A DNA stretch of 62,496 bases from Myxococcota bacterium (GCA_039187775.1 JBCCZL010000001.1:1-62496); one strand, 5' to 3'. Shown: positions 46,801 through 62,496, counted from the first letter of the stretch. Notes: generated by a model not told the origin, from the sequence alone. Translations and numbers: made by a program.

Positions 46801-47515
46801 TGGACTCGCGGTTATCGATCCACTTGAGGAGCGCGTCGGTGTTCTGGCTTGTCGTAAAGGGCGCGATGCCCTCGAAGCCGACGAGCACATCACCGCCGCC
46901 AGTCGCGGTGCTACCGCAGCTTCCGCGGTAGTTTCCACACACCTGCGGAGAACTCGCCGCATTAAAGAGAAACAGGTTGTTGCTTCCAGAAGGACGGCAG
47001 GCCGCGGGGAAGGTGGACTGCCAATCGATGGGGCAGTTCACCCCCGGATTGACCGCCGCTCCAGTGTTGCACTGCGGGTTGCCGTAGGATGTAACAAAGG
47101 GGCCGCCGAAGTTGCACTCGTAGTTGTTGATGTTGGTCTGGAGCCCCGCCGTGCAGGTCGTGTTCGTTCCCTGGCTCTGACGGAACCGAGCCATCGCGAG
47201 GTCGATGTCGCCGCCGTAGGCGTAGATGAGATTTCGAATCGCCTCTTTCGCGACGAAGATTCGACTGTCGTTCGGAAGTCCATCGCAGTCGCTGTCGATC
47301 CCTGCGGTGCAGTTGGCGCCGCAGTACACGCCGCCGGACACCGTGCACCCCGTGGTGATCCCGTCCCCAAAGGTTGGCGTTCCGTTCAGGTCGAATGCCA
47401 TCGACCCCGACGTATCCACCGCGAGCATGATGCGCGGCGGCAGCTGGGCCGATGCCGGGTTTCCCCCGAACAGGAGCGACAACAACAAGACCCCAATTCC
47501 GAACGGTAGTCGCAT
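40838..47515 (-). CDS. giant vWA / CDGxDNDCDG cysteine-repeat / FGE-sulfatase (SUMF1-type) domain surface protein
   Basis: Start set at ATG 47515 (MRLPFGIGVLLLSLLFGGNPASA signal). MIDAS DTSGSM. About 24 CDGxDNDCDGxxDE repeats. C-terminal YDMSGNVREWT...RGGGF...GFRCCYYE. See the findings for the internal sorting-tag/signal junction. Confidence 0.9.
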   Translation of the reverse strand: MRLPFGIGVLLLSLLFGGNPASAQLPPRIMLAVDTSGSMAFDLNGTPTFGDGITTGCTVSGGVYCGANCTAGIDSDCDGLPNDSRIFVAKEAIRNLIYAYGGDIDLAMARFRQSQGTNTTCTAGLQTNINNYECNFGGPFVTSYGNPQCNTGAAVNPGVNCPIDWQSTFPAACRPSGSNNLFLFNAASSPQVCGNYRGSCGSTATGGGDVLVGFEGIAPFTTSQNTDALLKWIDNRESNPLLTATTAGNWCSHAGAGDCELRPEGPTPLAGTLNSVGTYMTTAQGSDPLFASCNRPYSIILITDGAQSTGCAPNDPVAAATALNTSGIRTYVVGLAITGGAATQLNAIAAAGGTDATPGLAGGEAFFANDPTTLSAGLSAIVADSFISETCDGTDEDCDGLTDEGFPLFCNVPAGQLTPTLCVDPGETNCDGVDDNCDGRIDEGVLNACGTCGPVPTEVCGNLLDDDCDGVIDEGCSGCPGTAETCNNVDDDCDGLTDEALTRACGTNIGECTAGTESCSAGAWVGCSAVGPNAEICDGLDNDCDGVIDGFTRQCGTSDVGKCQFGSQLCTGGTFGACVGNIEPSAEICDGIDNDCNGTVDNGNPGGGAMCGSNIGVCTPGTRACVGGMLACTGGVSPGMELCNGLDDDCNGVVDDGIPPLGACGASSTGECSLGTLVCVGGTPTCVGDRGPTAEVCDGLDNDCDGTNDNGNPGGGNPCGTATGVCELGTSQCVGGMLTCAGGVGPGAEVCDLLDNDCDGLVDEGNPGGGGACGMSDVGACEFGALACVMGMLQCIGETGPSPEICDGIDNNCNGMIDEGNPEGGAACGDDTGECRPGTTFCNAATGMLECMGAVGPTPEICDGLDNNCNGVADEGLPVGAPCGSDVGECSPGVNICRDGMLQCEGQIGPVAEVCDALDNDCDAMVDEGLPAGVACGSSEGLCMPGTQQCVDGREVCIGEVPPMREACDCQDNDCDGTTDETPMTGTLCPEGATCVDCQCALPCRRSEFGVSCPSGKTPFETNGECFCVAEQCSAESCGMETVERDGETLCGPDATDVTNCVCKNNECTFSCDGVVCTDGTVCNPLDPAGRCVEDSCRGLGCPAGLVCDGNTGECVEDACAAVTCMDSQACRDGACEESCAGVSCGPGQRCQSGSCVTDLCANTGCMVGEVCNPADGSCSSACADVTCPDRTVCDLMTGECESDPCNTLRCPEGEICRNGECTNETVAPGDAGMDGGDAGMEEAEGTRVLATGGGGCTCSTADGSPGNDEPQGPTWWLMAAMLFLYFVPRRRASALLKKALLFGGLVLLVGAAGCDVDPYCIDCIKSTADGGSDGGDGGISRPDATLDAEVDADAELPDGCMPGAPELCNMFDDDCDGVVDEGVDTMTDVDNCGGCGLRCAPIHAFGECVAGNCELGACDVSWYDLNNDISDGCEYRCSGTEADDTVCDLRDNDCDGLVDEDVAFDTDPTNCGACGRLCRFARATSSCSMMTCEIDSCDPNFFDIDGNSGNGCEYACTPASPAVEACNGLDDDCDGTVDEGNPEGGGNCGSNVGACVRGTELCMNGTLVCSGETAPVTESCDNVDNDCDGMTDEGNPDGGALCGSSVGTCEQGRQTCVNGALDCVGEVVAQPEVCDGLNNDCDGMIDEGDPGGGGSCGPAAVGACSPGTNRCRGGVLVCEGAVGATDETCDGADNDCDGMTDETDPAIGTSCGTDEGACTPGTRICSGGVLRCSGAFMGGAETCNGVDDDCDATVDEGNPGGGASCGSAVGACMAGTQTCTAGVLQCQGETTGSLESCDTIDNDCDGMTDEDFNLLTDLNNCGGCGTPCSIPNAAANCSGGSCNFVACLTGFWDINGDASMTPTDGCEYACSINGAEACNGIDDDCDMIVDEGLTPPTNFCNPNGVCMGTSPVCGGAAGWQCNYPATFEVSETRCDTLDNDCDGQTDEPFFPQLGSTCTNGLGLCQTVGLFICNPGDPLSIVCNAAPAGMPSGELCDNLDNDCDGVVDNGVGDIVTGDINAVRIPRPSGGFVRVMAYEASRPDATASEQGLANTLACSNANRLPWTDVTWNEANNACCALNSSGTCSGGSAEWRLCDSAEWTRACGNTADMCMWGYQNMCNTSQVTTCNGDEFDCSAASGDQDCLFPTGSPSFPMCRQVWTTGSIYDMSGNVREWTDTLAGAGRHEIRGGGFTNIEAGRTCAFDFTVADNSFSFPNVGFRCCYYE

Positions 47516-47603
47516 GACAAAACCCTCAGTTCCCGACAAGAAATGGGACCATGTAACCAAGCAAACGTCAACAATAACGGAAAACTACGTTGTTTGTGGA
47601 TAT

Positions 47604-47660: not shown

Positions 47661-50600
47661 GTGCGCGTGGCGAAAACTTCTGGGGGTCAGGTCAGCAATC
47701 TACTGCGCGAGCAGCGTCCGACCCTCTTGATGGTGGGGACGGGCGAGCCTCTCGACGCCGCGATCCGGAAAGCGCTCGATGCGAAGGGGCTCTTCGTCGA
47801 GAGCTGCGCGTCGCTCGCAGTGCAGCGGGCGGTGCGGGTCGCCGCGCCGGACCTCGTGCTTCTCGTGGGCGACGCGGCGCGCGATCAGGGGCGACGCGTC
47901 TTGCGCCTTCTTGCGAATCATCCGGCGACGTCGGTGATTCCGGTGGTGGTCCTCAGCGACGAACCCTCGCTTGATGACAAGCTCATCGCGTTTCGTCATG
48001 GCGCGGTCGGCGTGGTTCCGCGTTCGGCAAGCGCCGACGAGATCGCCGGTCGGATCGCCAAGCTCGCGATCGAACTCCCGGATCGGAAAGGCGGCGCCGC
48101 GGGCGAGCTTGGCGAAGCGAGCTTCGAGGAGCTCATGAGCCTCGTGCGTCAGGAGCTTCACAGCGGCATCCTTTCGGTGCACTCGCCGGGCATGGAAACC
48201 GATGGTGTACGCGTGGTTCTCGGCGCGGGTCGTCCGGTGGCGGCTGCACTCAAGGAGTTTGTCGACCGCCTCAAGCCGCACGTGTCCGAGTCGGAGTCGC
48301 TCCGCTACTCGTTTCACGAAGCGCCGGGAGGACGGCTGCAGTTCCTCGACCTTGAGACCAAAAGTGGCGACCTTTCGGTGCTCGATGGCCGGCGGGTGCT
48401 CGTGGTCGACCACGACCCAGGGCGGGCGGACGCGCTGACGCAAGAGCTCCGAGATCGCGGGGCCACCGTCGTGGTCACCGATCCGGCGGGAGAAAGTCTC
48501 GCCCGGGCCCAGGGACTCGATCCTGAGATCATCGTGTTCGATGCGGCTACGCTGGACGGTCCGGACTTCGAACTCGTGCGGCGGATTCGCCGTGACCTTC
48601 GACTTCGCTGGGCGAGCTTGCTGCTCGTCAACTGGTCCGAGATCTGGCCGGACCGGAGCCATGCGATCGACATGGAGAAGTTTGCCCACCGGGTCGCGCC
48701 GCTGGTCGAGCAGGTGACCGAGCTTCGCGATCTCGCCGAGCGGCGCGATCAGTTCGATACCCGTCTCGAGATCACCGGTCCGGGGCGTTTGCTTCGCACC
48801 CTCATTGGCGTGAACCGCACGCTTCACGCCACGATTAGCCACAGCCGGATCATGGTCGAGGTGGACATCGCCGAGGGCCTCATCGTGGGCGCGGTCGCGC
48901 ATCTGCCGGACAACCGAAACCTCGAGGGCCTCGAGGCGCTCGCCGCGCTGATGGCGATCGGTTCGGGTCGGGTCCGAGTCGAACAGCGCCCCCGGCCGAA
49001 CGTCGCGAACATCATGGCGCCGGTCGATGACACCCTGGCGCAGGCGGCCGAACTTCCACTTCCGATCAAGCCGTCGGTCTACCCCGGAGCAAATCGCGAG
49101 TCTGATCCCCCCACCGGGCTCACGACGAAGATTCCGACCGCTGGGGTGCCTGACCTCGGGGTGGCGGGCCCGCTGACCCCGCTGCCCGAGAGCGCGCTGA
49201 CCTGGGACGATCCTGCGGAGGAAGAGCGGCATCCAGACCTTGTCGAAACCAACCCGGCGGCCGAGGCGTACCAACCCGACCTCAGCACCCCGCCCCACGT
49301 CGAGACCGACGAGCCGACGAGTAGCGATCTGCTCGGCAAGACCGGTCGACTCGCCGAGGCGACGGCGCCGGGTGGGGATCTCGCCGAGGCGGCGGGCAAG
49401 CGTGCGGCGGAGCTCGATGCGCTTGGCGAAGTGAGCGAGCCTCCGATGGAGATCCGCGACTCGATGCTCGAGGAGCCGGACGAAGACGATATCGAGACCT
49501 TGCCGCCGACGGCCGGCCAGCCGGTGGCGGTGGAACTGCCTCCCGATCCGAAGCCTCCGATTGGAGTGATCCCGGACCTTCCGATCTCGGACTTCCCCGT
49601 CCGGGTGGAGCCTTCCGCTGTCAAGCCCGAAGGCCTTGGCGCCAGGCAAGAGTCGATTCCCGACAAGACCGAGCCGATGTCGCTGGAACCCGGATGGCCG
49701 GTGAGTACGCCGCCTCCGCCGCCGACCTCTCGCGGCCCTCTTTATGCCGTGCTCGGGGTCTTGGTGGTGCTTTCGGTGGGCACGGCGACCTTCTTTGTGA
49801 TGCGGAGCCTCGGCGGTACCGATCCCGTCACAACCCACACCGGCGCCGAACCGGAAAACGGATCGGGTGAGTCGGAAGGTTCCGAACCGGAGAACTCGGA
49901 AAACGGCACTCCCGCGAACCGCGCCTCAGAACCCAGCACATCGGAGACCGGCACGTCGGAGACCGGTACCACAGAAACCGGTACCACAGCATCCGGTACC
50001 GCAGAAACCGCCAGCGACTCGGAACACGGCGCCCCGGAGGAGGTCGAGACTGGGGACCGGGAAACCACCGAGGGGTCCGACGCAGAGGACAGCGATCCCG
50101 AACACCGCGATCCCGAACACCGCGATCCCGAACACCGCGATCCCGAAGACCGCGACCCCGAAGCGGCCGGTACGGAGGAAGATCCGGACGAGGCTTCGGA
50201 GGCGGCGGAGACGACCGAGACCGAAGTCGCGACGATCGATCCCAATCGATCCGCGTCGTCGTTGATTCGCGAGGCGGAGCGCATGGTGCGCGACGGTCGA
50301 ACCTTGGAGGCCGCACCCCTCTTCGAGCGGGCTCTCGAGCTTGCGCCGAATGATAACCACGTGCTTGCGGGCATGGCCGAAGTGCACCTTGCGCGAGGCG
50401 AGGCGGCGGAGGCGGTGGAATATGCCCAGCGCGCGGTCGCGCTTCGGTCCCGAAGGGCGAGCTACCGTGTCATTCTGGCCGAAGCGCTTCTCGGAAGTGG
50501 CAATCGACAGGAGGCTCGCGGACACCTCCAGCGGGCGATTCAGCTCGACCCGGGCAACGCTCGGGCAAGTCGGCTCCGAGCGCGCATCGAAGCCGAATAG
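47661..50600 (+). CDS. REC-like x2 / DUF4388 / TM / acidic low-complexity / TPR protein
   Basis: First REC-like domain lacks the acidic pair (LLMVGTGE) but keeps PDLVLLVGD. Second has VLVVDHD and PEIIVFD. GRLLRTLIGVNRTLHATISH...EGLEALAALMAIGSGRVRVE fits DUF4388. TM segment LYAVLGVLVVLSVGTATFFVM. C-terminal TPRs. GTG start, so the start is uncertain. Confidence 0.85.
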   Translation: MRVAKTSGGQVSNLLREQRPTLLMVGTGEPLDAAIRKALDAKGLFVESCASLAVQRAVRVAAPDLVLLVGDAARDQGRRVLRLLANHPATSVIPVVVLSDEPSLDDKLIAFRHGAVGVVPRSASADEIAGRIAKLAIELPDRKGGAAGELGEASFEELMSLVRQELHSGILSVHSPGMETDGVRVVLGAGRPVAAALKEFVDRLKPHVSESESLRYSFHEAPGGRLQFLDLETKSGDLSVLDGRRVLVVDHDPGRADALTQELRDRGATVVVTDPAGESLARAQGLDPEIIVFDAATLDGPDFELVRRIRRDLRLRWASLLLVNWSEIWPDRSHAIDMEKFAHRVAPLVEQVTELRDLAERRDQFDTRLEITGPGRLLRTLIGVNRTLHATISHSRIMVEVDIAEGLIVGAVAHLPDNRNLEGLEALAALMAIGSGRVRVEQRPRPNVANIMAPVDDTLAQAAELPLPIKPSVYPGANRESDPPTGLTTKIPTAGVPDLGVAGPLTPLPESALTWDDPAEEERHPDLVETNPAAEAYQPDLSTPPHVETDEPTSSDLLGKTGRLAEATAPGGDLAEAAGKRAAELDALGEVSEPPMEIRDSMLEEPDEDDIETLPPTAGQPVAVELPPDPKPPIGVIPDLPISDFPVRVEPSAVKPEGLGARQESIPDKTEPMSLEPGWPVSTPPPPPTSRGPLYAVLGVLVVLSVGTATFFVMRSLGGTDPVTTHTGAEPENGSGESEGSEPENSENGTPANRASEPSTSETGTSETGTTETGTTASGTAETASDSEHGAPEEVETGDRETTEGSDAEDSDPEHRDPEHRDPEHRDPEDRDPEAAGTEEDPDEASEAAETTETEVATIDPNRSASSLIREAERMVRDGRTLEAAPLFERALELAPNDNHVLAGMAEVHLARGEAAEAVEYAQRAVALRSRRASYRVILAEALLGSGNRQEARGHLQRAIQLDPGNARASRLRARIEAE
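50094..50168 (+). repeat. 15-nt in-frame tandem repeat (GATCCCGAACACCGC), about five copies
   Basis: Three perfect copies at 50094-50138 and two diverged copies after them. Encodes DPEHR DPEHR DPEHR DPEDR DPEAA. Confidence 0.9.
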
Positions 50601-50752: not shown

Positions 50753-53700
50753 TTACAGTCGAAGATCGATCTCAGCGGTCTGCCGGTAGGTGTTGAGCTC
50801 GTTCTCGGCCTCGAGGGTCTCGAAGCGGCGTCGGACGATCTCGAAACAGATCCGATACGCTCCAGGGCCAAGCGGCGCTCGGGGGAACACCAGCAGCTTG
50901 GTCGCGTCGCGGTTTTGAACGACGAGCGTCGCGACATCTTCGTAGACTCGGGTGCGAAACGTCGGAACGAACCGACGGTTCGGAAGAAGCGCGATCTCTG
51001 ACAGGCCGAGCTCGCGCACCACTCGCGCGACCTCGGGACGAAGCTCCCGGGTGGTGAGGTGGCCCTCGCCCGTGAATGAAAGAGTCTCCACCGCGGACCC
51101 TTCGAGCGTCGGTGCGGTCTCTATGCGCTCGGGAGCCGACCTTCGGGAAGTCAGTCGGAGTCTCGGAGCCTCCGGTCGCGCGTCCAGCCTCGCGTTGGTC
51201 AGCGTGGTCGGGGTGGGAATGGGACGTAGGTCGACCGGTCGAAGCGGTTCGCGGCGCGTCTCGGGGATGAGATCTCCGAGCGCCGGGTTGACGCGGGGCC
51301 GGAGAAGCTCCGGGCGAAGTCGCCCGAGGAGGTCCCGCACATCGCGGCCGACCCGCCGCCGAAGCTGCTTGAGCTCGAGGCCGACCTCCGACACGACATC
51401 GAGAGGCTCGGGGCTCTCGACCAGAAACGCCCCGACGGTGTCTCCACCGATCGCGGTGATGGTGACTCGCTCCGGGATGTCCTCGGTAAATACCACCAGC
51501 TCCGAAATGAGCTGGTCGAAGAGTTCTTCTCGCTCGGCGTCGGAGGCCTCCGGCTCCATCGCCGCCACGATGGCACCGAGATGGGTGCGGAGCGCCCTCT
51601 GGATCTCCTCGGCAGATCCTGGTTGCAGAAGAAGGCCGTCGAAGGAGTCGATGTGCTCTTCGAAGCTTCGGTAGCGGCTCGCGGTGAACGAATGGCTCGT
51701 CATATCGACGCCCGACACAAAGAGCGTGGTGATCGACGCGTTGGGGCTTGCAACGATGCTCGGAGGGCCCGAGTACCGCCGCTCCCGCGGCACGTCGAGG
51801 GATTGTCCACTGGCGCGAAACCGAACGATGTCGGCGTATATCACCGCTTCGATGAGCGCCGCGTCACCGACGTCGACCGATCGACCGCCCACCTCCAGCC
51901 GCCCGTCCCGAAGCCGTGCTTCGACTGCTCCGCCAAAGAGCTGGACACCAAAGTCTCCGGTTCCGCCGATCGAGATGCGCATGAGGTCCCATTCGGGGTC
52001 GCCGAACCCGAGCTCGCCGCCGGCGGGTGCCCGAAGCGCGCCGTCGGCCCATTCCCAGGCGCCCTCCCGCCGAAATGTGAGGAGGTCGGTTTCGGAGAAG
52101 CGCTTTCGGTGAATCCACGGTGCGCCCTCGGGCCGAACGCACGCCGTGTAGGTCGCGTTCGGTTCCCAGAGGCCCTCGTCCGGCTCCGAGACGACGGCGG
52201 CCTGCTCGACCCGAGTCGGATCGTCGATCCCGCACCGGTTGTCGCCCGCCTCGACCAATCGGCCGAATCGCTGCTTCGCTTCGTCCTCGGTCGACGCAAC
52301 GATCACTTGGAGGACGGAGCGCGCGAGGAACGCCGCGGCCCCAAGGAACGCGCCCCCTCGAGACAACCAGTCTTCGGAAGTCGCCGAGGAGCGACTCAGG
52401 AGCTCGTCGGCATTTCGGCCGGAGTTCGCACGCACGATCAAGGACACGGGAAAGGTCTGCCGATGTTCGTCGCTCGCGGTTCCTGGAGCGAAGAGCTTCA
52501 GGTCCTCGCTGAAGAGCGTCAGCACCGGTTCTTCGCGATAGAGCCGCCCTCGATGACCGCCGTAGGCTCGAACGACGTACGGGGCAAGCTCCTGCCCAAC
52601 ACTCTCGGTGAGATTCGTGCCAGGGAACCCCGACGTCTCGAAGGAGATGGATTCGGTGACCTCCGCGGCTTCCCAGTCGGTGGTCGAATGCTTCACCGAA
52701 ATGTGGGTCGTGATCTCGACGGTGTACTCGTGTTGCGGAAGAAAGAAGGTTCTTGCCGGCCGTTCCCGGTCCTCGTGGTTGCAGGCGTCGACCGCATTTC
52801 GATAGGCCAGATACTCGGTGACGGTCACTCCGACCAAGCCGGCGATCTCGATCCAGTTGGTCGGGATCAGGCGGTTGCCCACGACGATTCCGCCGTCCTG
52901 CTCGTTGGGTCGGGTCATCACCCGGACGGTGCGGAGGGGGCCGGTGACGAGGACGCTATGCCAAGTGCCGTTCGCGGGGAACGTCTGACGGTATACTTCG
53001 GCTCCCGCTCGGTCTTCTGCGACTACGTCGATGCCCGGTTCGCCGCTCAGACTGCTCACCCAGATTCGGAGGTACTGAATGTCCTCGTGGGCGACAAACT
53101 GCCAGCTTTGACCCGCGTCGAGGGACAGGACCCGACCGCTTCCCACGCTCGAGGTGGCTTCCGGCGGCTTGATGAAGCCCCGACGAAACCACACATTGGC
53201 GCGGACGTCGCTTACCGAATGAACGGGCAAGCGAGTCGGCCCGAGCGGTTCGCTTCGATAGTAGTGTTCAAAGAGCGTGAGCGTCGGATCGCAGCAGGGC
53301 CAGTTGGGGTTCTCGCGAAGTATCGAGTCGTCGGCCTCCGGTGAGTCGAAGGAAACGCCAAACGGCGTATTGCCATTGAGGAAGAGCTGCGACGCGACCG
53401 TTTGATCCTCGGACCGAATCTCAGAATTCCACGCCCAGCGAAAGATCGTGGGGGATTCGCTGCTGACGATCGCGCCCGACTCGTCCAACGTAAAGCGAGG
53501 GGTTCGCTCCTCGACGACCGTCCATTCGGCGTCGCTAAACCGAGGCCGCCGCTTGACGACCAGCTTCTGGAGCTCGTACCGGGTAAGGAGTTCGACGTCG
53601 TCGTCGCCGCTTGCCCGGATTCCGAAGTCTCCAGTGGGACTCAGGTCCAGTAGATCGTTGACCGGCTGGGCGAACTCGATGGTGATAGTGGCCGCTGGCG

Positions 53701-56665
53701 AGACGAGGTTCCGTTCGCCCGACCTTCGGAGCTCGGGTGCCCGGAAGTCGATCACCGACCCCAGCACGGTTTCGTCGGTTGCGCCGGGTGGAAACGCCTG
53801 CTCGAGCCGGAGCGGCGCCGTGCCGCCGGTCGCCTCGGAGAGCGCATTCGCATCGCGAAGGGCGCCAACGATCGCGGCGCGGGTTTCGGGCTCGACCGAA
53901 CCGAAGAGGAACTCGCAGGTAAAGGACAGGTCGGGAAGGAACCACGGCGTTTCGATGCGAAAGAGAATCGAAAACACGGTGTAGTTCGGAACGTGCGCAA
54001 TGTGCTCGATGTCGGCGGCGAGCTTGAGGCCAAACTGAAAGATCTTCAGAACGCTCAGCCGAATTCCCATCTCCCACGTCGCTCGAAGCGCGAAGTCTCC
54101 CGAGCCGGTGAGGAGCCAGATCGCGAGGAAGGAAAGGCCGCTGTAGCCGCTCGCGGAGAAGATGACGAAGTCGACGCCGATTTCGCCGCGAGCCGCGAAT
54201 CCGAATCCGCCGCGAACGTTCTCCACCCACTCGATGCAGAGTCCGATAAAGAACTCGAGCTTTCCGATGTTCTCGGGCAGCGCGATCTTGATCGTAAGAT
54301 TCGCCCAGCTTTTCTCGTCGTTGAGCCGCCCGAGAGCGAAGGTTCCCGGTCGGTTGCCGATCAGGAGGTTCGCTTTGATCTTGAACGCGTCCTTCAGGAT
54401 GTCCGGGGGGTTGTCGAGGAAGTGCTTCAGCGACAGATCGACGCCGATGCCGAGTGCCCACCGGTCGTTGGCGGCGTCGTATTCGAACACTGCGTACCCG
54501 ATCGGGTCCTTCGAGCTCAGGACGAAGAGTTCGATCGCGATCATGAACCCACGCTCGGACGGACTGTGAATGATCATACCGAACGCGCTCAGCCGGAAGA
54601 CATCGCCCATTCCTGCGAAGCCAATCGATAGCCCGACGCCAACCGCCCAGGCATCGTTCTCGGGCTGCCATACCGTCATTCTTCGATCGGGAGGAACGAG
54701 CAGCGGGTCCGCTCCTTTGGACCAGTTGTAGTAGCGAAGCTCGGGCGCGTCCTCGTCGAAAGAATCGAGCTTCGGCAACATATTCGAAGCGAACAGGATG
54801 CGAAAGCCGAAGCACTCGATCACGCCAAAGGGAATGCGACCTTCGAACGCGATCTGCAGCATCCAGTAGTCGAAGGCTTCCGCATCGTTGTCTGGCATCG
54901 GAGTGATGTTCCCGACGATGATGTCGAAGCCGAACTTGTACTTAGCGGCTTCGAGGTCGAGCTTGAGCGTCCCCGAAAGGCCGAACTCCTCTTTGAATAC
55001 GCGCTCGGTTTCGAGCGCGGCATTGGTGTAGTAGCCGAGGAACTCGAACAGAACCGCGCTGTTTCCGATCTTGCCGCCAAACCCGTCCATCTTGAGGTCG
55101 GCGGCGCTCGGGTTGCCCGCGACTTTGCCGCGGATCCGTTTGAACCACACCGAGGTCTCGAAGCCGTCGACTTCGATGCCGACCCCGCCGCTGATCGAGA
55201 AGTAGGCGGCCTCGTCCTCGTAGAGTACGCCGGTTTCGTAGAGCACGAGCTCGAGCGGCCCGAGCGTGAGCTGAGCGCCCTCAGGAAGCGAAAACGTCTC
55301 AAGGGAGAACGTCCCGAGCTTCCAGCCGAGGTCCGTGACCGCGATCGAAAAATCATCGTCTCCCAGAACCGTGAGCTGAAGTCCGGAGTTGCCGTTGGAG
55401 CTGTCCGCGTCGGATCCGCCGAGGGGTTCTTCGCTTACGCCGCCTCCAAGGAGCAGATCGACCGTGAAGAGGAACGAGTTTCCAAAATCTTCGCCGCGGA
55501 GCAGTCGGCCGATCGAGACACCGAACTTTGCCGCGATGATATCGATGCGAAGGATGCCAAAGAGATCCATGGCGAGGACCGCGACTTCGTCCCGACCCAT
55601 GGTGGGCGAACGACGGATGGCGGCGCTCACGGTCCACTCGTCTTCGAGTGCGATCAGCGCAGCGCCCCGGTCCTCGTTCACATCGAACACGATGCCCATC
55701 TCGAAGTTGATGCCCTCGGCGACGTCGGCCGGCGGTGGCAACGTCTCGAACCAGAACTTGCTCACCACGAGGCGAAGGTGCTCGGCGAGCTCGATGGAGA
55801 TCGGCGAGCCTCGCAGGTCGAAATAGTCAGTAAGGCGCGCGGTATTTTCGATCGAACGCCGAAGGCCCATCGTTCCATGGACGGGAAGCGGCAGGATCTG
55901 CACTGCGGGAATTACGACATCGTTGAACGCCCACTCGTATTCTCGAAACCCGTCCTCTCCGAGCTCCCGCGCAATCTGAACGATCGGATTGTCATCGTCG
56001 CCCCAATCGATGTCGAAGGTCCGAATCCCTACCGCTCCGGTGTTGGGGCTTGCCAGTGGGCTCTCGATGGGCCGGACGATCCAGTCGATGGTTTCGTGAA
56101 GGTTCGGCTGGTGAGGGAAAAAGCGAATGTCGAAGATGCCGCGGCAGGAGACTCCCATAAACTTCGCCGGCGCGACGCTCAGCGGGGTAATGGGCTCCAG
56201 CCGAAAGTCGCCGGCGGTCGAGTAACGGAGCCGCACCTCGGTGGTGAACACGGTGTCTCCGCTTCGAAACTCGACGATCTTGTCGGAGGTCTTGGATGCT
56301 CCATGGGGCCCGATGAAGTCGTGGGGAGTGACGATTTCTAGGGTGACGTTTTCGAGGATGACTTCGGTGGAGGTGCCACCGATTCGCACGACGAAGTCGA
56401 CCCCATCTTCGCGCTTCGCGCGAAACTCGAACGATGGGAACGCTTCGAGGCGGACGTCCAGCGGCGGTAGCTCCCGGAGAAACTCGAACTTCCCGGAGAT
56501 CACGGTCTCGTCGCCGAGCCGAGACGTGGAGAGGTTTTTGACCTCGACCTCTCGGGCGATCTCGGAGAGCCAGAGGTTGAGCGAGCCTCCCACCGGGCCG
56601 ATCTCGGAGGTGGGCCACGCGGCGGCCAACGGAGCAAGCGGGAAGACGTCGAAGAAGCGGATCAT
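50753..56665 (-). CDS. 1970-aa hypothetical protein (beta-rich, no recognised motif)
   Basis: ATGA overlap with the PLD-like gene (56662-56665). Native GC3 style throughout. The antisense ORFs are shadows. Confidence 0.85.
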   Translation of the reverse strand: MIRFFDVFPLAPLAAAWPTSEIGPVGGSLNLWLSEIAREVEVKNLSTSRLGDETVISGKFEFLRELPPLDVRLEAFPSFEFRAKREDGVDFVVRIGGTSTEVILENVTLEIVTPHDFIGPHGASKTSDKIVEFRSGDTVFTTEVRLRYSTAGDFRLEPITPLSVAPAKFMGVSCRGIFDIRFFPHQPNLHETIDWIVRPIESPLASPNTGAVGIRTFDIDWGDDDNPIVQIARELGEDGFREYEWAFNDVVIPAVQILPLPVHGTMGLRRSIENTARLTDYFDLRGSPISIELAEHLRLVVSKFWFETLPPPADVAEGINFEMGIVFDVNEDRGAALIALEDEWTVSAAIRRSPTMGRDEVAVLAMDLFGILRIDIIAAKFGVSIGRLLRGEDFGNSFLFTVDLLLGGGVSEEPLGGSDADSSNGNSGLQLTVLGDDDFSIAVTDLGWKLGTFSLETFSLPEGAQLTLGPLELVLYETGVLYEDEAAYFSISGGVGIEVDGFETSVWFKRIRGKVAGNPSAADLKMDGFGGKIGNSAVLFEFLGYYTNAALETERVFKEEFGLSGTLKLDLEAAKYKFGFDIIVGNITPMPDNDAEAFDYWMLQIAFEGRIPFGVIECFGFRILFASNMLPKLDSFDEDAPELRYYNWSKGADPLLVPPDRRMTVWQPENDAWAVGVGLSIGFAGMGDVFRLSAFGMIIHSPSERGFMIAIELFVLSSKDPIGYAVFEYDAANDRWALGIGVDLSLKHFLDNPPDILKDAFKIKANLLIGNRPGTFALGRLNDEKSWANLTIKIALPENIGKLEFFIGLCIEWVENVRGGFGFAARGEIGVDFVIFSASGYSGLSFLAIWLLTGSGDFALRATWEMGIRLSVLKIFQFGLKLAADIEHIAHVPNYTVFSILFRIETPWFLPDLSFTCEFLFGSVEPETRAAIVGALRDANALSEATGGTAPLRLEQAFPPGATDETVLGSVIDFRAPELRRSGERNLVSPAATITIEFAQPVNDLLDLSPTGDFGIRASGDDDVELLTRYELQKLVVKRRPRFSDAEWTVVEERTPRFTLDESGAIVSSESPTIFRWAWNSEIRSEDQTVASQLFLNGNTPFGVSFDSPEADDSILRENPNWPCCDPTLTLFEHYYRSEPLGPTRLPVHSVSDVRANVWFRRGFIKPPEATSSVGSGRVLSLDAGQSWQFVAHEDIQYLRIWVSSLSGEPGIDVVAEDRAGAEVYRQTFPANGTWHSVLVTGPLRTVRVMTRPNEQDGGIVVGNRLIPTNWIEIAGLVGVTVTEYLAYRNAVDACNHEDRERPARTFFLPQHEYTVEITTHISVKHSTTDWEAAEVTESISFETSGFPGTNLTESVGQELAPYVVRAYGGHRGRLYREEPVLTLFSEDLKLFAPGTASDEHRQTFPVSLIVRANSGRNADELLSRSSATSEDWLSRGGAFLGAAAFLARSVLQVIVASTEDEAKQRFGRLVEAGDNRCGIDDPTRVEQAAVVSEPDEGLWEPNATYTACVRPEGAPWIHRKRFSETDLLTFRREGAWEWADGALRAPAGGELGFGDPEWDLMRISIGGTGDFGVQLFGGAVEARLRDGRLEVGGRSVDVGDAALIEAVIYADIVRFRASGQSLDVPRERRYSGPPSIVASPNASITTLFVSGVDMTSHSFTASRYRSFEEHIDSFDGLLLQPGSAEEIQRALRTHLGAIVAAMEPEASDAEREELFDQLISELVVFTEDIPERVTITAIGGDTVGAFLVESPEPLDVVSEVGLELKQLRRRVGRDVRDLLGRLRPELLRPRVNPALGDLIPETRREPLRPVDLRPIPTPTTLTNARLDARPEAPRLRLTSRRSAPERIETAPTLEGSAVETLSFTGEGHLTTRELRPEVARVVRELGLSEIALLPNRRFVPTFRTRVYEDVATLVVQNRDATKLLVFPRAPLGPGAYRICFEIVRRRFETLEAENELNTYRQTAEIDLRL

Positions 56666-59409
56666 GACCCCTCCGCGTAGCTCGAGGGGTCACTGATGAT
56701 GTCGAACACGGCATCCTCCTCGGCCGCGAGGATCATTGCGGCCACGAGGCTGAGGGCCGCGGTCCCGAGGCCGAGGCCTTCGACATCGAGAAACGGACCG
56801 CTCGTGCCGCCGCCGCTGAAGAGCTCCGGATAGGTTGCTTCGGTGGCGAAATCGATAAAGCGGTTTCCCTTCTTTCGCGACCGCTCGAACCATGGGATGG
56901 CGTGAAGCGGATCGCGAAACAGGACGCGGCCGACCGCTTCTGGGATGTGGAGCGCCTCCGACCAGAGGCGCGTTCGGAGGTCCCGGATCCAGTTGTTCGG
57001 CGTAAAGCGAAGCCGATCGGGCATCGCGAAGATGTTGCACTCGCCGTCGGAGAAGTAGCCGCGGCGACTTGCGGCGGCCGAGCCAATGCTGGCGAACACA
57101 TCGTCGACGATCATCACGCTGGAGTGCACATGGATGCCCTTGAAGTCGACCACCGTTGCCGCCGCCCCCGTTTTGTGCTTGTCCGGCTCGCTGCCTTCGT
57201 CGGGTCCGAAGAACTGGGTCGCGGCGCCGCGTCGGATCTGAAGCCGGACCACCGCGTCCTCGGTGGTGTCGGTCTTGTTCACCACCTGGATGATCTCCTT
57301 ATCGACCACCATCCAAAACGGCGGCGAGGGGACTCGAGCGGCGGGTTTGACCTCGACGGTTTCCGATACCGACGGTCGTTCTTCCAGGGGCTCGTTGAGG
57401 TAAAGACGGCCATTGTCGGCTTTGCGGACGGTTCGAATCGCGCTGTAACCGCGGCGCATCACGCCGACCCGGGCGGTGGGGATTCTCCCCGCGAATGCGC
57501 TTCTTGGTCCGAAGCCAAAGGGCTGGTCCGGGGTGGCGGGAACCATGATGAACACTTCGACGCCTCGATCCACCGCGGCGACTATCTCGTCCACATACTC
57601 AGATGGCGGCGTTAGGTGTTGATCCTCGACGTAGATGAACTGCCGTGCGTTGCGGATTGCGCTCAGGGTGGTTTCGTAGATCGTTGTCTCGCCGGTCGGC
57701 GCGAACGTGAAAGGCGCGGTGGACCCGTCGGGGTTGGGGGCGAAGTAGGTGCGGGCGATCTGCACCACGTCGTTGCCAGCGCTCGGCAGATCCTCGTAGG
57801 GCGGAGTCGAGATCGCCAGGGGCTCGGTACTGGCCCGAGTCCAGCGTTCCGCAAAGGTGAGGGCCAAGTCGCGGACCGCGGGGCCGTCTACTCGCGCGTG
57901 CACATCTTTGAAAGGGGCGGAGATCTTGTGTTCGAAGTCGTCGAGGCGATCGGGATTGAGGTCGACGCCTCCCGCGTAGGCGTGAACCCCGTCGTCGTTC
58001 CGGATGACGGCGATCTTCTGATGGAAGACGTTGAAGCGGTCCATCAGGGTGAGCACGGTGTTGACCACGGACTCCGACGGGAGGCTGGTGACCTTGAGCG
58101 GGTTGTCATCCGACGACGCGGGGTAGGGATCGAAGAGGGCGATCGAATCCGGAGCCCGGGTGAGCGCGTCGACCGCGGCTCGGTTGGGTTCACCCAGGGT
58201 TTCGACCAGTTCCTCGAGGTGGCCTGCCGCGATCACCCCGCCCACGATCAGCAGGAAGAGGTTCATCAGCGTGGTCGTGTCGAGGAGCTCCTCGTCCACG
58301 AGAAGATCGATCGTGATGGCGCCCGCGAGGAGCACGACCAGCAGCACCATCAGCGCGTCACCGAGGTCGGACACCGCCCCCGACCGAAGCTGAAAGAAGT
58401 CGAGGGCGAGGAATCGGGCGCTCCCGCCCGCATCGATCAGTGCATTTACCGAATCACGGGTGGTGGCGGGAATCCCCGGCAGTTCGGTGAGGACGTCGTC
58501 CGGGGAGATGAAATACCCGGTCAGGTGAAAGCCCGGCTCCGGACGGGTCCCAATCCGTGAGAGCTCGCGAAACATCTCGTCAAAGACCTCGGCGTTCAGG
58601 AACGGCACTACGGTGTTTCCGAGCGTCCAGCGCGAGAGTGCGGTCGTCTGCTGAGGTGAAAACCAGCTCTCCAGGTCGGTAAACGAAATGGTCCGAATAC
58701 CTGGGACGATTTCGATTTCGTCCATCGCGGATACCCCGTCGTCGCGGGTGAAAAGGCGGTCCGCGAATGAGAGACGCCGGCCGTTCAGGTCGGCGCGAGA
58801 GGTGGTTGCGGACACCAGGTTGCCCGCATCGTCGGTGCTGAGGCGCGATGACACTCCGTCCCGAACAAAGGTGAACGTACCGCGCCGAGGGCGGCCGAGC
58901 GCATCGCGAAGGATCAGGGCATCGTCGCCGAGCGCCCGTCGAGCCGCGTCGAGAAGGATGCTCAACTCGCGTGACCCGCGGACCGAGCCCACCGCGTCGC
59001 TGAGCCACTGGAGGGAATCGAGGATGTCCTCTGCGCCATTGTCTGGCGTGAGAATGGCGAAGACGAAGTGTGGACTCGCGGCGGAGATTTCGCTCGTCCA
59101 GGTGATCGAGCCTTTGTCGACGGTCGTCGCGGTATCGGGGAGCGCGACGTAGATCGTCGGCCACACCCGAAGCGCGCTAAGGACCGCGGGAAACTCGAGC
59201 GGAAGGGCTTCGAACTCCAGCACTCGAACGTCGTCGCTCGTCTTGCGGTTCACCCAGCCGGTGCACGGAGAGAGGAGCCGAATGGGAACGCTTCCCTCGA
59301 TGCGAAGCGCCGAAACGTGCATTCCCCCGTAGCGAAGCCCGGACGGAATCGAAAGCACGTCCCGGGTAATCGTCGTCCCGGTGAAGTTCGGGAACGGCGT
59401 CGTAAACAT
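56662..59409 (-). CDS. phospholipase D superfamily (HKD) domain protein, 915 aa
   Basis: Start set at ATG 59409 (MFTTPFPNFTG), overlapping the upstream TGA (TGATG). FHQKIAVIRNDDGVHAYAGGVDL and IHVHSSVMIVDDVFASIGSAAASRRG motifs. The first 158 codons of the track ORF overlap the upstream gene and are Arg/Gly-rich. Confidence 0.85.
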   Translation of the reverse strand: MFTTPFPNFTGTTITRDVLSIPSGLRYGGMHVSALRIEGSVPIRLLSPCTGWVNRKTSDDVRVLEFEALPLEFPAVLSALRVWPTIYVALPDTATTVDKGSITWTSEISAASPHFVFAILTPDNGAEDILDSLQWLSDAVGSVRGSRELSILLDAARRALGDDALILRDALGRPRRGTFTFVRDGVSSRLSTDDAGNLVSATTSRADLNGRRLSFADRLFTRDDGVSAMDEIEIVPGIRTISFTDLESWFSPQQTTALSRWTLGNTVVPFLNAEVFDEMFRELSRIGTRPEPGFHLTGYFISPDDVLTELPGIPATTRDSVNALIDAGGSARFLALDFFQLRSGAVSDLGDALMVLLVVLLAGAITIDLLVDEELLDTTTLMNLFLLIVGGVIAAGHLEELVETLGEPNRAAVDALTRAPDSIALFDPYPASSDDNPLKVTSLPSESVVNTVLTLMDRFNVFHQKIAVIRNDDGVHAYAGGVDLNPDRLDDFEHKISAPFKDVHARVDGPAVRDLALTFAERWTRASTEPLAISTPPYEDLPSAGNDVVQIARTYFAPNPDGSTAPFTFAPTGETTIYETTLSAIRNARQFIYVEDQHLTPPSEYVDEIVAAVDRGVEVFIMVPATPDQPFGFGPRSAFAGRIPTARVGVMRRGYSAIRTVRKADNGRLYLNEPLEERPSVSETVEVKPAARVPSPPFWMVVDKEIIQVVNKTDTTEDAVVRLQIRRGAATQFFGPDEGSEPDKHKTGAAATVVDFKGIHVHSSVMIVDDVFASIGSAAASRRGYFSDGECNIFAMPDRLRFTPNNWIRDLRTRLWSEALHIPEAVGRVLFRDPLHAIPWFERSRKKGNRFIDFATEATYPELFSGGGTSGPFLDVEGLGLGTAALSLVAAMILAAEEDAVFDIISDPSSYAEGS

Positions 59410-62400
59410 CAGGCCCCTCCCGATGCAGGAAGTCGACGGGGGCCGATCAGTGTCGAGGTGGTCCCATTTCGGAAGCTGGCGACCCACACCTGCACCTCGG
59501 CGTCGCTTCGACGGGTGACCGGCACATCCCACACCAGCTGGTCGACTCCGCGGTCCTCGTTGCGCCGGGTCGAGGCTCCGTCTGGCGAAAGAGTAACGGG
59601 CACGATGAGATCGCCGTCGTCGGTCCGGACGCGGTGGGTGCGTGAGGGATCGAGGTCCGCCCGGTTCTTCACCGTCAATAGCCGCGCGCCGACCTCCGGC
59701 GGAGTCGCGCCCGTGACCTCGGTCGCAAACAGGAGGATGGTTGGGGCCTGAGGATTTGCCCCCAGGAGATCGACGGTCACTTGGACGTTCACCTCTGCAT
59801 CGGACAACGCTTCGAGCGGCGAAAGCTCGGGAACGAGCGGGCGGGATCGATCGGGGACCACCACCGCCACCGGAGCGAGCCAAGCGTTTACGGAAGTGCG
59901 GCCTTTCGCGTCGGACGCTTGAACGCGATAGAACCAGCGGCCCGGGACGTTGGGGAGCGAGTCGATGTGGGGGCGGAGCGGACCCTGATACACCGTGGTC
60001 CAGAGCGAAGTCAGCTCGTATCGGTTAGCGATCGTGGCTAGCCACAGATCCTCGATTCGCCCGCGTCGGATCTGATCGAGGAGGTCCGGAGTGGCGTCGT
60101 CGATCCTGACGCCGCTTTCGTCCGTGTCGGTGTCCACCCAGGCCTCCACGTCGACCCGCCGAACCCGCCGTGCGATCGCGTCGCCGCTCACGCGCTGAAT
60201 GCGAACATCGCCGGCAACCCAGCCGGGCGGGCCCCAGTCTTCCGCACGAAACTCGAACCGAAGGTCGTTTCCGCGGAGGAGGCGAAGCTCTCGCCGGTCG
60301 ACCTCCAAGAGCTCGGTACTCGGCACCTCCGGACGGCCAAAGTACTCCGCGAGGATCGGCGCGGACGCGGCGTAGCTCTCATTGCCCCACCGCCCCGCGA
60401 GCGGTCCTGAAGAGATGGTGTCCGTGACGTAGCGTTGATCGTCGGCCGCGGTCACTCCGAGATAGCCGCGAATACTCGGGCCGTCGGCGTCGATCGTGAT
60501 GAGATCTCCGTCGAGCACGAGCGAGTAGCTTGTTCGCATCGGCCGTGGGTCGTCGATCGGTTGAATCGCAATGCGCCGGTCCCAGCTCGTCGGAGGACCT
60601 CCACCGTCACGGTCCGACCGGGAGAGACGAAAGCTTCCCGCCCGAGGCTGGGCGGTGTCGTCGGCGGTGCTCTCATCCACGCGAATCGCAATGCGTGAAC
60701 CGGCGCCGTGGCTCACGATCCGAAACGGGTGAGGCAGCCCGATGCTCTGCCCGACGAGCGCGTTTTCGGCGACCGACTCCTCGAGTTCCACGCTGATCTC
60801 GAAAAAGTCGCCGTCGCGGCGCGTCGATAGCACTCGTCCGCCGACCGAGTTGTAGTCGTTCGCCCGAAAGTAGATTCGAAACTCTCGAACGAACGGATCG
60901 CGATCGCGTTCGGTGGGCGGCTCTCCATCTTCGGCGGGCGCGGCCCATCCCCACTCGAGCACGATCGCCACATCCCGACGGTCGAGCGTCTTCGCGTCGC
61001 GAGGAAATTTGCGACGAAACGCCTCCTGGTCGAGGGGGTAACGTGGATCGTGGCGCTGAAGGACGCGGACCCGGACGCCGGCCCGGGGATCGGCACCGCG
61101 GTCGATGGGACCTCCGGGAATCGGAGGCGGCAGGTGCTTCTCAAGGCGCTGTGGCGAAGCATCCAGAGGAGCCGACCGGCGCCCGATCGGATCGACGGTG
61201 GTCACTCGGTACGTGAAAGACTCCCCGTACGGAGTGTTGGCCCGCTTGCCTTTGATGATCGACTGGAGGGTGTCATCGATCTCCACCCATCGGGAATGCG
61301 CGGCCGGTCGGTGTTCGGATGAGAACCGACGCTCGATGTCGATGCCCGGACCTTCGGACGGAGTGGGCAGATCGAGCTGTCGCGCACCCACGATGAGACC
61401 CGCGTCCGAGTCGTAGGGGCGGAATGCTCCGTCCGACCCGGCGCGTTCGAGAATGAAGTGCGCGCTGTCGAGCGGGGGCGCGTAGGGAAGGTCGACCGGC
61501 CACGGGGTGTCGGTAGGATCGATGGCAACGCGAAAGCCCGCCATGTGTTGTTCGCGCTGCGCGCTGACCGGGTTCTGGAGATTGCCAGCTTCGATTCGTT
61601 CGGCGGTGCGAGGTCCCGGAGAGTCATAAAAGACGACGTTCCGGAGGACCGCCTCGCGGGTCTCCACGTCGGTGGGACCGTGGACTCGCGGTTGTTCGAT
61701 CACCGCGGAGATAAACATCTCGCCGCGGATCCGAACGCTATCGAACAACGCCGGACTTGTGAGCTGAGTGCGCCCCGACGGGGAGAGCGTGACCGAGTGC
61801 ACGGTGCTTCCGCGATGGGAGAAGGCGACATCCACGCTGCCGAAGAGATCGACGGCCAGGAAACGAGTCGGCGCGGGCAGAATGAGAGTGAGGAGCCGTG
61901 GCCGGATCCCTTTGTGCAGGGTCTCGAACGCTTTACCGTTCGGAGGAGTTCGCGACACCACCATCGTTTGCCGGCCGGGAACCCAAAGCACCGCACCGGT
62001 TCGGAAGAGCCCGGGAAGGGACGTGCCGAGCGGCACCGCGGTGAACTCGTGACGCACGTCGTGAAGGTCGCGCGATAGGAACTCGCCGGTGATGCGGTAG
62101 TCGTAAGCTTCATTGAACGTAAGCTCGTCCGCCGGGTCGAAGTAGCCGAAGCCGAGGCCGCGTCGCCACTCGGGAAGCAGGCTGAGCGCCATCGCGTTGC
62201 CGAACACCTGCGTTTCGATTCCGAGGCTTGTTTGGCCATGGCGTTGGCAGATCGATCGGAGCGGAACATCGAGGGTTCGGGTGTCCGAAATCGCGCTAAA
62301 GAGTCGCTCGAACTCCCCGAACTCGACCCGCTCTCCATCGATCAAGCGGGAACCAATGAGATCCCGGGCGTCGGCTACAGTTCCGATCGAAGGATGAATG

Positions 62401-62496
62401 GGAGCGAACGGAAGCTGAATGTCCTTCGCGATTCGATGCTCTTCTTCCCATGGATCGGAGAGGATGTTGCGGCAGCACAGCTCGAGCATCTCGAGC
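59409..62496 (-). CDS. large hypothetical protein with FN3-like segments; N-terminus probably beyond the window
   Basis: Open from the window edge (in-frame ...LE before M at 62489). YRVTTVDPIGRRSAPL and WFYRVQASDAKGRTSV resemble FN3 G-strand endings. Confidence 0.8.
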   Translation of the reverse strand, partial: LEMLELCCRNILSDPWEEEHRIAKDIQLPFAPIHPSIGTVADARDLIGSRLIDGERVEFGEFERLFSAISDTRTLDVPLRSICQRHGQTSLGIETQVFGNAMALSLLPEWRRGLGFGYFDPADELTFNEAYDYRITGEFLSRDLHDVRHEFTAVPLGTSLPGLFRTGAVLWVPGRQTMVVSRTPPNGKAFETLHKGIRPRLLTLILPAPTRFLAVDLFGSVDVAFSHRGSTVHSVTLSPSGRTQLTSPALFDSVRIRGEMFISAVIEQPRVHGPTDVETREAVLRNVVFYDSPGPRTAERIEAGNLQNPVSAQREQHMAGFRVAIDPTDTPWPVDLPYAPPLDSAHFILERAGSDGAFRPYDSDAGLIVGARQLDLPTPSEGPGIDIERRFSSEHRPAAHSRWVEIDDTLQSIIKGKRANTPYGESFTYRVTTVDPIGRRSAPLDASPQRLEKHLPPPIPGGPIDRGADPRAGVRVRVLQRHDPRYPLDQEAFRRKFPRDAKTLDRRDVAIVLEWGWAAPAEDGEPPTERDRDPFVREFRIYFRANDYNSVGGRVLSTRRDGDFFEISVELEESVAENALVGQSIGLPHPFRIVSHGAGSRIAIRVDESTADDTAQPRAGSFRLSRSDRDGGGPPTSWDRRIAIQPIDDPRPMRTSYSLVLDGDLITIDADGPSIRGYLGVTAADDQRYVTDTISSGPLAGRWGNESYAASAPILAEYFGRPEVPSTELLEVDRRELRLLRGNDLRFEFRAEDWGPPGWVAGDVRIQRVSGDAIARRVRRVDVEAWVDTDTDESGVRIDDATPDLLDQIRRGRIEDLWLATIANRYELTSLWTTVYQGPLRPHIDSLPNVPGRWFYRVQASDAKGRTSVNAWLAPVAVVVPDRSRPLVPELSPLEALSDAEVNVQVTVDLLGANPQAPTILLFATEVTGATPPEVGARLLTVKNRADLDPSRTHRVRTDDGDLIVPVTLSPDGASTRRNEDRGVDQLVWDVPVTRRSDAEVQVWVASFRNGTTSTLIGPRRLPASGGA

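Follow-up and report, generated by a model that had tools for sequence, protein, structure and literature searches.

In PldA (Tle5a), a type VI secretion system (T6SS) toxin of Pseudomonas aeruginosa, each of the two His/Lys pairs is catalytic, and a helical insertion lies within the lobe that carries the first HKD motif (PMC9550806). The two-HKD catalytic core of PldA (7v53) and of the plant and human phospholipases D (PLDs) is also found in the family of the middle protein of the three-gene module described here. This module, consisting of genes A, B and C, fills positions 50753-62496 on the minus strand of a 62,496-nucleotide (nt) stretch of DNA from a Myxococcota bacterium (GCA_039187775.1, JBCCZL010000001.1:1-62496), hereafter called the window. 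Cardiolipin synthases (ClsA/ClsB, TIGR04265) share with the B family two HKD motifs and two hydrophobic helices, and DISARM likewise places a PLD-superfamily protein in a multigene cassette with very large partners. In ABC (Tc) toxins, three giant proteins that lack signal peptides are encoded in one cassette. LptD, SlpA, the FimD/PapC ushers and the β-belt of ApoB100 have many long antiparallel strands in common with residues 1-960 of protein C. No description of the trio turned up in the literature, and the A-B-C system appears to be undescribed, with A and C matching no described family. The initial annotation of the window, made from the sequence alone, had proposed a candidate undescribed system centred on a PLD-like protein, and this proposal has held up, given the conserved synteny of the three genes and the lack of a known-machine match for B and C (for A, by sequence).

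The three translationally coupled giant open reading frames (ORFs) of that annotation were re-called in the order A-B-C, with the following layout:

59409-62496, minus strand: gene A, open at the window edge (62495) and running to a stop codon at 59411-59409; 1028 codons, with no in-frame stop up to the edge
59407-59411, minus strand: TGATG overlap of the A stop and the B start, with a GGAGGGG Shine-Dalgarno sequence at 59420-59414
56662-59409, minus strand: gene B, 915 amino acids (aa) from an ATG; two-HKD PLD-superfamily protein, eukaryotic-type or cardiolipin-synthase-like
56662-56665, minus strand: ATGA overlap of the B stop and the C start, with a GGAGGGG Shine-Dalgarno sequence at 56674-56668
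50753-56665, minus strand: gene C, 1970 aa, with an ATG start and a TAA stop

Both junctions were read in the DNA as they had been reported, and each internal ATG was found to follow its Shine-Dalgarno sequence. A 1073-aa, TTG-started version of B was considered and rejected, being merely an upstream open frame. The visible N-termini of B and C show no signal-peptide features and are conserved across both families. A pattern scan of the three proteins detected neither a Walker A motif nor RHS/YD repeats in any of them, and their G+C content at third codon positions (0.75-0.80) resembles that of the neighbouring genes. The initial remarks on absent signal peptides, absent motifs and a host-like codon style were thus borne out.

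The distribution of the module was surveyed through the C family, using a search pattern on one genome per GTDB species. C-family genes were found in 70 of the 185,579 species genomes, in at least eight phyla. The carriers include Actinomycetota (Streptomyces, Nonomuraea, Actinomadura, Nocardioides and Mycobacterium), Alphaproteobacteria (Ruegeria and Roseivivax), Gemmatimonadota, Acidobacteriota, Rokubacteria, Chloroflexia, Vulcanimicrobiota, Eisenbacteria and Myxococcales. The trio is also present in a metagenome-assembled genome (MAG) of Nitrospira. A word-indexed search of 5.8 billion proteins returned three relatives of C, six of B and nine of A, all unnamed or "hypothetical". A HMMER search of 1.84 billion cluster representatives with a profile of C residues 1-1000 gave 281 matches; the 150 of these that were listed are C-like full-length proteins (about 1950-2300 aa) or shorter proteins and fragments, with no other family among them.

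Conservation of the trio as neighbours, on which the initial annotation had made its proposal depend, was found throughout this range. When the window proteins were compared with the C-family loci by tblastn, practically every locus with sufficient DNA had A and B on the strand of C and upstream of it. The usual gene order is A-B-C, and B-A-C was observed in five loci (L056, L064, L070, L073 and L077, from MAGs of Actinomycetota, Gammaproteobacteria, Alphaproteobacteria, Myxococcales and Eisenbacteria). The A/B junction of the homologous loci is a TGATG-type (1-nt) overlap in 15 cases and a 4-nt overlap in 12, and the B/C junction is a 4-nt overlap in 23 and a 1-nt overlap in 11. The A-B-C arrangement is not due to chance, since dozens of unrelated genomes contain these three families in identical orientation and with identical overlaps of 1 or 4 nt. 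In two loci a junction has disappeared altogether: one stop-free ORF of 2304 aa spans A and B in an Actinomycetota MAG (L042, 2706-9617), and one of 3125 aa spans B and C in a Gemmatimonadales MAG (L052, 6398-15772). These single ORFs are either natural fusions, which would speak for a physical complex, or artefacts of MAG assembly.

The homologous loci also bear on the claim that the 5' end of the operon lies outside the window, which stood in part. The start and promoter of A are indeed missing. Since the shortest full-length A homolog has 1085 aa and the module begins with A in the complete loci L003, L006, L008, L009, L011 and L012, what is missing amounts to the promoter and roughly 57 or more A codons, and not to further genes. 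The window thus contains nearly the whole operon, a point that the initial annotation had not made.

The trio is a real, self-contained and horizontally scattered module without a conserved fourth gene. Flank clustering of about 65 loci revealed no recurrent neighbour, whether an additional module gene, an immunity, secretion or lysis gene, or a defence island. When the 144 nearest flanking ORFs were assigned to Pfam families, no family occurred more than twice, and the top 25 families listed are mostly metabolic or transport families. T6SS, VgrG and Tli5-type immunity genes were not recurrent beside the trio in either of these analyses. The plasmid, phage and IMG/VR collections gave no match to the trio.

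Some loci show features of their own. Immediately upstream of the trio, two contigs from farmland (L003, 473-1117; L004, 204-848) and the Nitrospira MAG (L006, 1-540) carry an rve_3 transposase or a fragment of a phage integrase, which hints at mobility, yet such genes do not recur across the loci. In one Actinomycetes MAG, two C-like genes (L058, 10001-13071; L079, 130-4498) match only residues 400-1765 of C; the former is preceded by 10 kb of DNA without A or B, and a truncated or solo form of the module may be represented here. On the contig of P0004 (JGI 3300047160), a distant C homolog is followed after about 390 nt by a Prok_Ub (PF14454) gene of 67 aa (8721-8924), an arrangement observed once.

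B is the only protein of the trio with a nameable domain, as the initial annotation had stated. PLDc_2 of Pfam was matched in two stretches (E 7.6e-8; 32.7 bits against a cut-off of 27), whereas A and C have no such match. The best NCBIfam match of B is cardiolipin synthase TIGR04265 (E 3.9e-16), which at 59.1 bits lies below its cut-off of 290, and PADLOC gave marginal matches to DrmC (E 0.0018 and 0.011). A family profile built from 10 B sequences was searched against PDB sequences and matched plant PLDalpha1 (1e-24), P. aeruginosa PldA (3.6e-20) and human PLD1/2 (about 1e-17). All of its PDB matches are phospholipid-cleaving PLDs; none of the PLD-type nucleases (Nuc, BfiI, Zucchini and TDP1) was matched at E ≤0.01. 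An exact-sequence look-up of B found no record. The N-terminal region of about 270 aa is a domain of no recognised type. The following features were located within B:

58216-58353, minus strand: hydrophobic helix pair, aa 353-398 (helices at aa 353-371 and 380-398), in the first PLD lobe before HKD motif 1, from Kyte-Doolittle analysis
57952-58023, minus strand: HKD motif 1 (H463-Q-K465 ... GGVD), intact; the His is conserved in 64 of 66 homologs and the Lys in 65 of 66
57061-57126, minus strand: HKD motif 2, degenerate, with HVHSS...GSAAASRR against the family consensus YVHxK...GSANxNRR
56722-56778, minus strand: third, weaker hydrophobic helix near the C-terminus, aa 878-896, with a value of at least 1.6 in 56% of homologs

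The 19-residue Kyte-Doolittle peaks of the two hairpin helices are 2.81 and 1.9, and this hydrophobicity is kept in 94% and 84%, respectively, of 63-64 B homologs. The hairpin is predicted to be a membrane-inserting or membrane-binding element, and its position in the HKD1 lobe parallels that of the helical insertion of PldA. The initial annotation had left the role of the module between lipid targeting and nuclease-based defence. A lipid-directed role is now favoured, because the B profile matches only phospholipid PLDs in the PDB, because the hydrophobic hairpin is conserved and because the DrmC matches are marginal. B itself is favoured, on its sequence relationships, to be a lipid-type PLD rather than a nuclease.

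The window copy of B is an exception within its own family, which the initial annotation had not noted. Both HKD motifs are intact in 64-65 of the 66 B homologs, whereas the second motif of the window protein carries the changes K764S, N779A and N781S, at positions where the homologs keep the Lys in 64 of 66, N779 in 64 of 66 and N781 in 63 of 66. Its closest relative (L001) instead has H762N in this motif. A frameshift or sequencing artefact as the origin of the unusual motif was rejected, since the DNA contains several independent in-frame point substitutions. To judge from these residues, the window copy may be enzymatically weak or dead, and catalysis may have been relaxed or lost in its sub-lineage, though the protein is full-length.

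C gave no usable match to Pfam, NCBIfam, PADLOC, PHROGs or PDB sequences, with single sequences or with profiles. It was therefore described by means of predicted structure. Two halves, aa 1-960 (model mefbd63c13df2) and aa 931-1970 (model mc7a333721c96), were modelled with AlphaFold2 from 51-sequence alignments of HMMER homologs. Both models are confident. The first is almost entirely β (mean predicted local distance difference test score (pLDDT) 82.3, predicted template modelling score (pTM) 0.60), and the second reached a pLDDT of 85.3 and a pTM of 0.78. The regions of C distinguished in this way are as follows:

55382-56665, minus strand: mostly-β N-terminal region, aa 1-428, with a conserved N-terminus (W17, P18), from AlphaFold2
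53900-55381, minus strand: predicted barrel-like meander of about 28 long antiparallel strands, aa 429-922, from AlphaFold2
51311-53875, minus strand: predicted array of β-sandwich or jelly-roll domains, like carbohydrate-binding modules (CBMs) and ConA or other lectins, with an α/β segment, aa 931-1785, from AlphaFold2
51137-51310, minus strand: Pro/Arg-rich linker, aa 1786-1843, poorly conserved, with pLDDT below 50 (model residues 856-913)
50753-51133, minus strand: predicted C-terminal β domain, aa 1845-1970, and TAA stop, from AlphaFold2

The meander is the most conserved part of C. Its strands are mostly 8-18 residues long, and the pLDDT of the block is mostly 80-97 from aa 490 on. It is termed barrel-like here from the modelled strand layout, which does not imply a closed barrel or a hydrophobic face. 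In a Foldseek search of the PDB, the best matches of aa 1-960 were LptD, SlpA, FimD/PapC and ApoB100, which are the largest known β structures that face lipid, with TM scores of 0.12-0.22 and E values down to 6.8e-8. For aa 931-1970, mosquito SGS1, Cry1Ac protoxin, Vip3A and a GH32 β-sandwich were matched at global TM scores of at most 0.13; domain-level matches in this half were CBM4, CBM11, a pectate-lyase CBM and the lectin domain of lectinolysin (TMt 0.36-0.65). A fold comparison of C with viral models (BFVD) found nothing comparable (TM ≤0.13). Residues C1124, C1125, C1295, C1478 and H1312 are invariant in an alignment of eight sequences; in the alignment of 51 sequences, C1124 and C1478 are invariant, C1125 and C1295 are nearly so, and H1312 is no longer listed. 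The conservation of these cysteines suggests a metal site or disulfides. One C homolog of 2327 aa (P0045) ends in three DUF7452 copies (residues about 2196-2295 and upstream; E 7.3e-62) that the window protein lacks. The lowest G+C content of the window, 0.602 against about 0.65, occurs at 54001-56000, within the 5' part of gene C.

The homologs of A have 1085-1692 aa, and all are unnamed. By sequence comparison, A had no match in Pfam, NCBIfam, PADLOC, PHROGs or the PDB beyond marginal FN3-like matches to titin and NCAM in the last of these (E 0.13-0.9). Together with recurrent Y-R-V-x-x-x-D-x-x-G-x-x-S motifs, these marginal matches hint at FN3-like modules in A. An FN3 identity was tried by hhalign against the tenth FN3 domain of fibronectin, with a negative result (probability 1%). 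Domains common to A and C were rejected by the same method at the same probability.

What distinguishes the trio from the systems with which it shares individual features? The initial annotation had named as possible matches the extracellular contractile injection systems (eCIS), phage baseplates, Tc toxins and known defence systems. Such a match was found neither for B and C by sequence, nor for C by fold, nor for A by sequence. From PldA and other Tle5 proteins the trio differs in having no T6SS, VgrG or Tli5-type immunity gene nearby, and in occurring also in Actinomycetota; the linkage expected of a Tle5 effector is thus absent. Unlike PldA, B has an N-terminal domain of its own, a strongly hydrophobic hairpin and a constant pairing with A and C, and the window copy lacks the Lys of the second HKD motif. 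Compared with cardiolipin synthase, B scores far below the family cut-off, is twice the size, has internal rather than N-terminal helices, and is sporadic and operon-bound. The resemblance to the Tc toxins is an analogy only, both in the cassette of three giant signal-less proteins and in the predicted combination of binding β-sandwich modules, a large β-sheet shell or barrel and an enzyme. In contrast to Tc toxins, A, C and their homologs have no VRP1, SpvB or RHS matches in Pfam and no YD pattern, no Tc structure was among the top 50 fold matches of either half of C, and the enzyme is a separate PLD protein rather than the C-terminal domain of TcC. Unlike LptD and other outer-membrane barrels, which it matches by fold at the low TM scores given above, C has neither a signal peptide nor OstA/LptD Pfam domains. 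It occurs also in monoderm Actinomycetota (Streptomyces, Nonomuraea and Mycobacterium), and its barrel-like part is contained within a 1970-aa multidomain protein. DISARM differs in its DrmA helicase, DrmB (DUF1998) and methylase, none of which accompanies the trio, and in its DrmC, which B, as a probable lipid-type PLD, matches marginally at best (E 0.0018). Neither A nor C contains a helicase or DUF1998 domain. As regards eCIS and phage baseplates or tails, no PHROGs family matched A or C, and the PDB fold matches of C are not baseplate proteins. In PADLOC-DB v2, A and C had no match and B had weak DrmC matches only. The domains that define the LptD, Tc, eCIS and AsmA-type families were tested for and are absent from C, which is not a member of these families. 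B belongs to the PLD superfamily but is no cardiolipin synthase equivalog, Tle5 effector or DISARM component.

Within the window, the operon ends at 50753 and is convergent with a gene at 47661-50600 (plus strand), which encodes a 979-aa protein with a response-regulator receiver, DUF4388 and TPR, a domain mix typical of Myxococcota and consistent with such a host. A terminator and promoter scan 3' of C found neither. The 2240-aa ORF at 40838-47560 (minus strand) combines eight putative Cu-binding motifs of the MopE type (E 1.8e-83) with an FGE-sulfatase domain at the C-terminus. Opposite it, at 41369-47509, runs a 2046-aa ORF without a Pfam match, probably a high-GC antisense artefact. An AraC-family regulator (AraC_N and HTH_18) is encoded at 38562-39524 (plus strand).

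The trio is conserved and tightly coupled, B has its affinity with phospholipid PLDs and a conserved hydrophobic hairpin, and C has the folds predicted above. On these grounds the preferred reading, held tentatively and at a little less than an even chance, is a stoichiometric complex of A, B and C that acts on membrane phospholipid in an accessory, conflict-type role. The three products would be joined at a fixed ratio in a single complex of very large size. B would be its enzyme, a eukaryotic-type phospholipase D or transphosphatidylase, kept at or in the bilayer by its two hydrophobic helices. C would form a huge amphipathic β-sheet, a barrel-like platform bearing a string of lectin- or CBM-like binding domains, and A would be the third giant subunit. 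The system would serve as a membrane-attacking toxin or defence effector and not in core envelope biogenesis. An accessory, conflict-type role is suggested by the patchy, phylum-hopping distribution, the variable context, the lack of housekeeping linkage and the occasional integrase or transposase. A bolder form of this reading is rather unlikely. It holds that the trio is a giant membrane-attacking machine of three components that belongs to a new class, related neither in sequence nor in fold to Tc toxins or secretion-system effectors: the roughly 28-strand barrel of C, a protein made in the cytoplasm, would enter the bilayer of a target or, on a trigger, of the producer, guided by the lectin-like modules, C would place B there, and A would be a structural or recognition subunit.

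Several observations weigh against the preferred reading. The window copy of B lacks key residues of its second HKD motif. The fold matches of C reflect a fold class (long antiparallel meander and jelly-rolls) and not homology. The meander strands are amphipathic, but no more so than the ordinary β-sandwich strands of C, which makes this test uninformative. The support is computational, and a functional partner of the trio is named nowhere. No secretion signal and no linked secretion, lysis or immunity gene was found, which is awkward for an exported toxin; no defence-island context, no PADLOC match for A and C, and no carriage by phages, plasmids or IMG/VR entries was found, which is awkward for a defence system.

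These last two points weaken, respectively, the more specific readings of a toxin and of a defence system. As a sub-case of the preferred reading, the trio could be a released multi-subunit exotoxin that follows the logic of the Tc toxins while being unrelated to them: C would bind target glycans and insert its barrel-like domain, B would degrade the phospholipid of the target, and A would add binding or scaffold modules. The target could be eukaryotic (fungi, protists or invertebrates) or another bacterium; for an exotoxin, the lack of a conserved immunity gene would suggest a non-bacterial one. Consistent with this are the Tc-like layout of three giant signal-less proteins in one cassette, the barrel-like meander of C, the modelled resemblance of its C-terminal half to the glycan-binding arrays of Cry1Ac protoxin, Vip3A and SGS1, and the solved relatives of B, which are plant PLDalpha1, the T6SS toxin PldA and human PLD1/2. 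The carriers, moreover, are soil or marine competitors or predators (Streptomyces, Actinomadura, Myxococcota and Roseobacters). However, jelly-rolls are ubiquitous and were matched at low global TM scores (≤0.13), no Tc, RHS or other toxin Pfam domain is present, signal peptides are missing, as are linked secretion, lysis and immunity genes, and the hairpin could equally anchor B in the producer's own membrane. This exotoxin is on the unlikely side. In another reading, A and C would sense an infection, and membrane-anchored B would then break down the phospholipid of its own cell; the hairpin topology, with no signal peptide, would put the catalytic domain of B at the cytoplasmic face. Some defence systems have phospholipase effectors, and such abortive infection against phages or plasmids would suit a compact, self-contained cassette that is sporadic, horizontally scattered and, in three loci (L003, L004 and L006), adjoined by an integrase or transposase. 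Against it stand the PADLOC results (none for A and C, marginal DrmC for B), the absence of any defence-island signal among the 144 flanking ORFs, the absence from the phage, plasmid and IMG/VR collections, the lack of domains typical of sensors or regulators, such as an NTPase or a nuclease, and a size of about 12 kb, very large for such a system; abortive infection is accordingly quite improbable.

A role outside conflict would give the same enzyme another purpose. The trio might extract, carry or remodel phospholipid, for example by cardiolipin-type transphosphatidylation, in an envelope, vesicle or lipid-body function, with the sheet of C serving as a belt or groove of the ApoB or LptD kind. 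The best NCBIfam match of B, the presence of ApoB100 and LptD among the fold matches of C, and the often ordinary metabolic neighbours point this way. Yet B falls far short of the cardiolipin synthase cut-off (59 against 290 bits), no AsmA, TamB, LptD or MCE match was found in Pfam, the same architecture occurs in monoderm and diderm bacteria, the lectin-like array would have no obvious role, and the module is very sparse for such a function (with this search pattern, 70 of 185,579 species genomes). Lipid handling of this kind is judged decidedly improbable. Very improbable indeed is nuclease-based defence with B as a DrmC- or Nuc-like PLD nuclease. The weak DrmC matches (E 0.0018 and 0.011) speak for it, and are outweighed by the profile, which finds phospholipid PLDs in the PDB and no PLD nuclease at E ≤0.01, by the two-HKD single chain of B with its conserved hydrophobic hairpin, and by the absence of the DrmA, DrmB and methylase partners. 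A complex of A, B and C acting on membrane phospholipid in an accessory role thus remains the preferred reading.

Two protein families of 1100-2300 residues, found from Streptomyces to Roseobacters, Nitrospira and Myxococcota, have had no name, no domain annotation and no solved relative, and both of these giant families are genetically locked to a eukaryotic-type phospholipase D. The question of what the module does is directly testable, since cultured carriers exist: Streptomyces justiciae, S. hyaluromycini, Nonomuraea sp. NBC_01738, Nocardioides astragali, Ruegeria spp. and Roseivivax lentus. Should its function be to carry or remodel lipid, the trio would be a bacterial lipid-handling machine of a new kind, common to monoderms and diderms. 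If it attacks membranes, it would represent a new architecture among bacterial toxins or immunity systems, from which new pore-forming or lipid-directed activities might be obtained.

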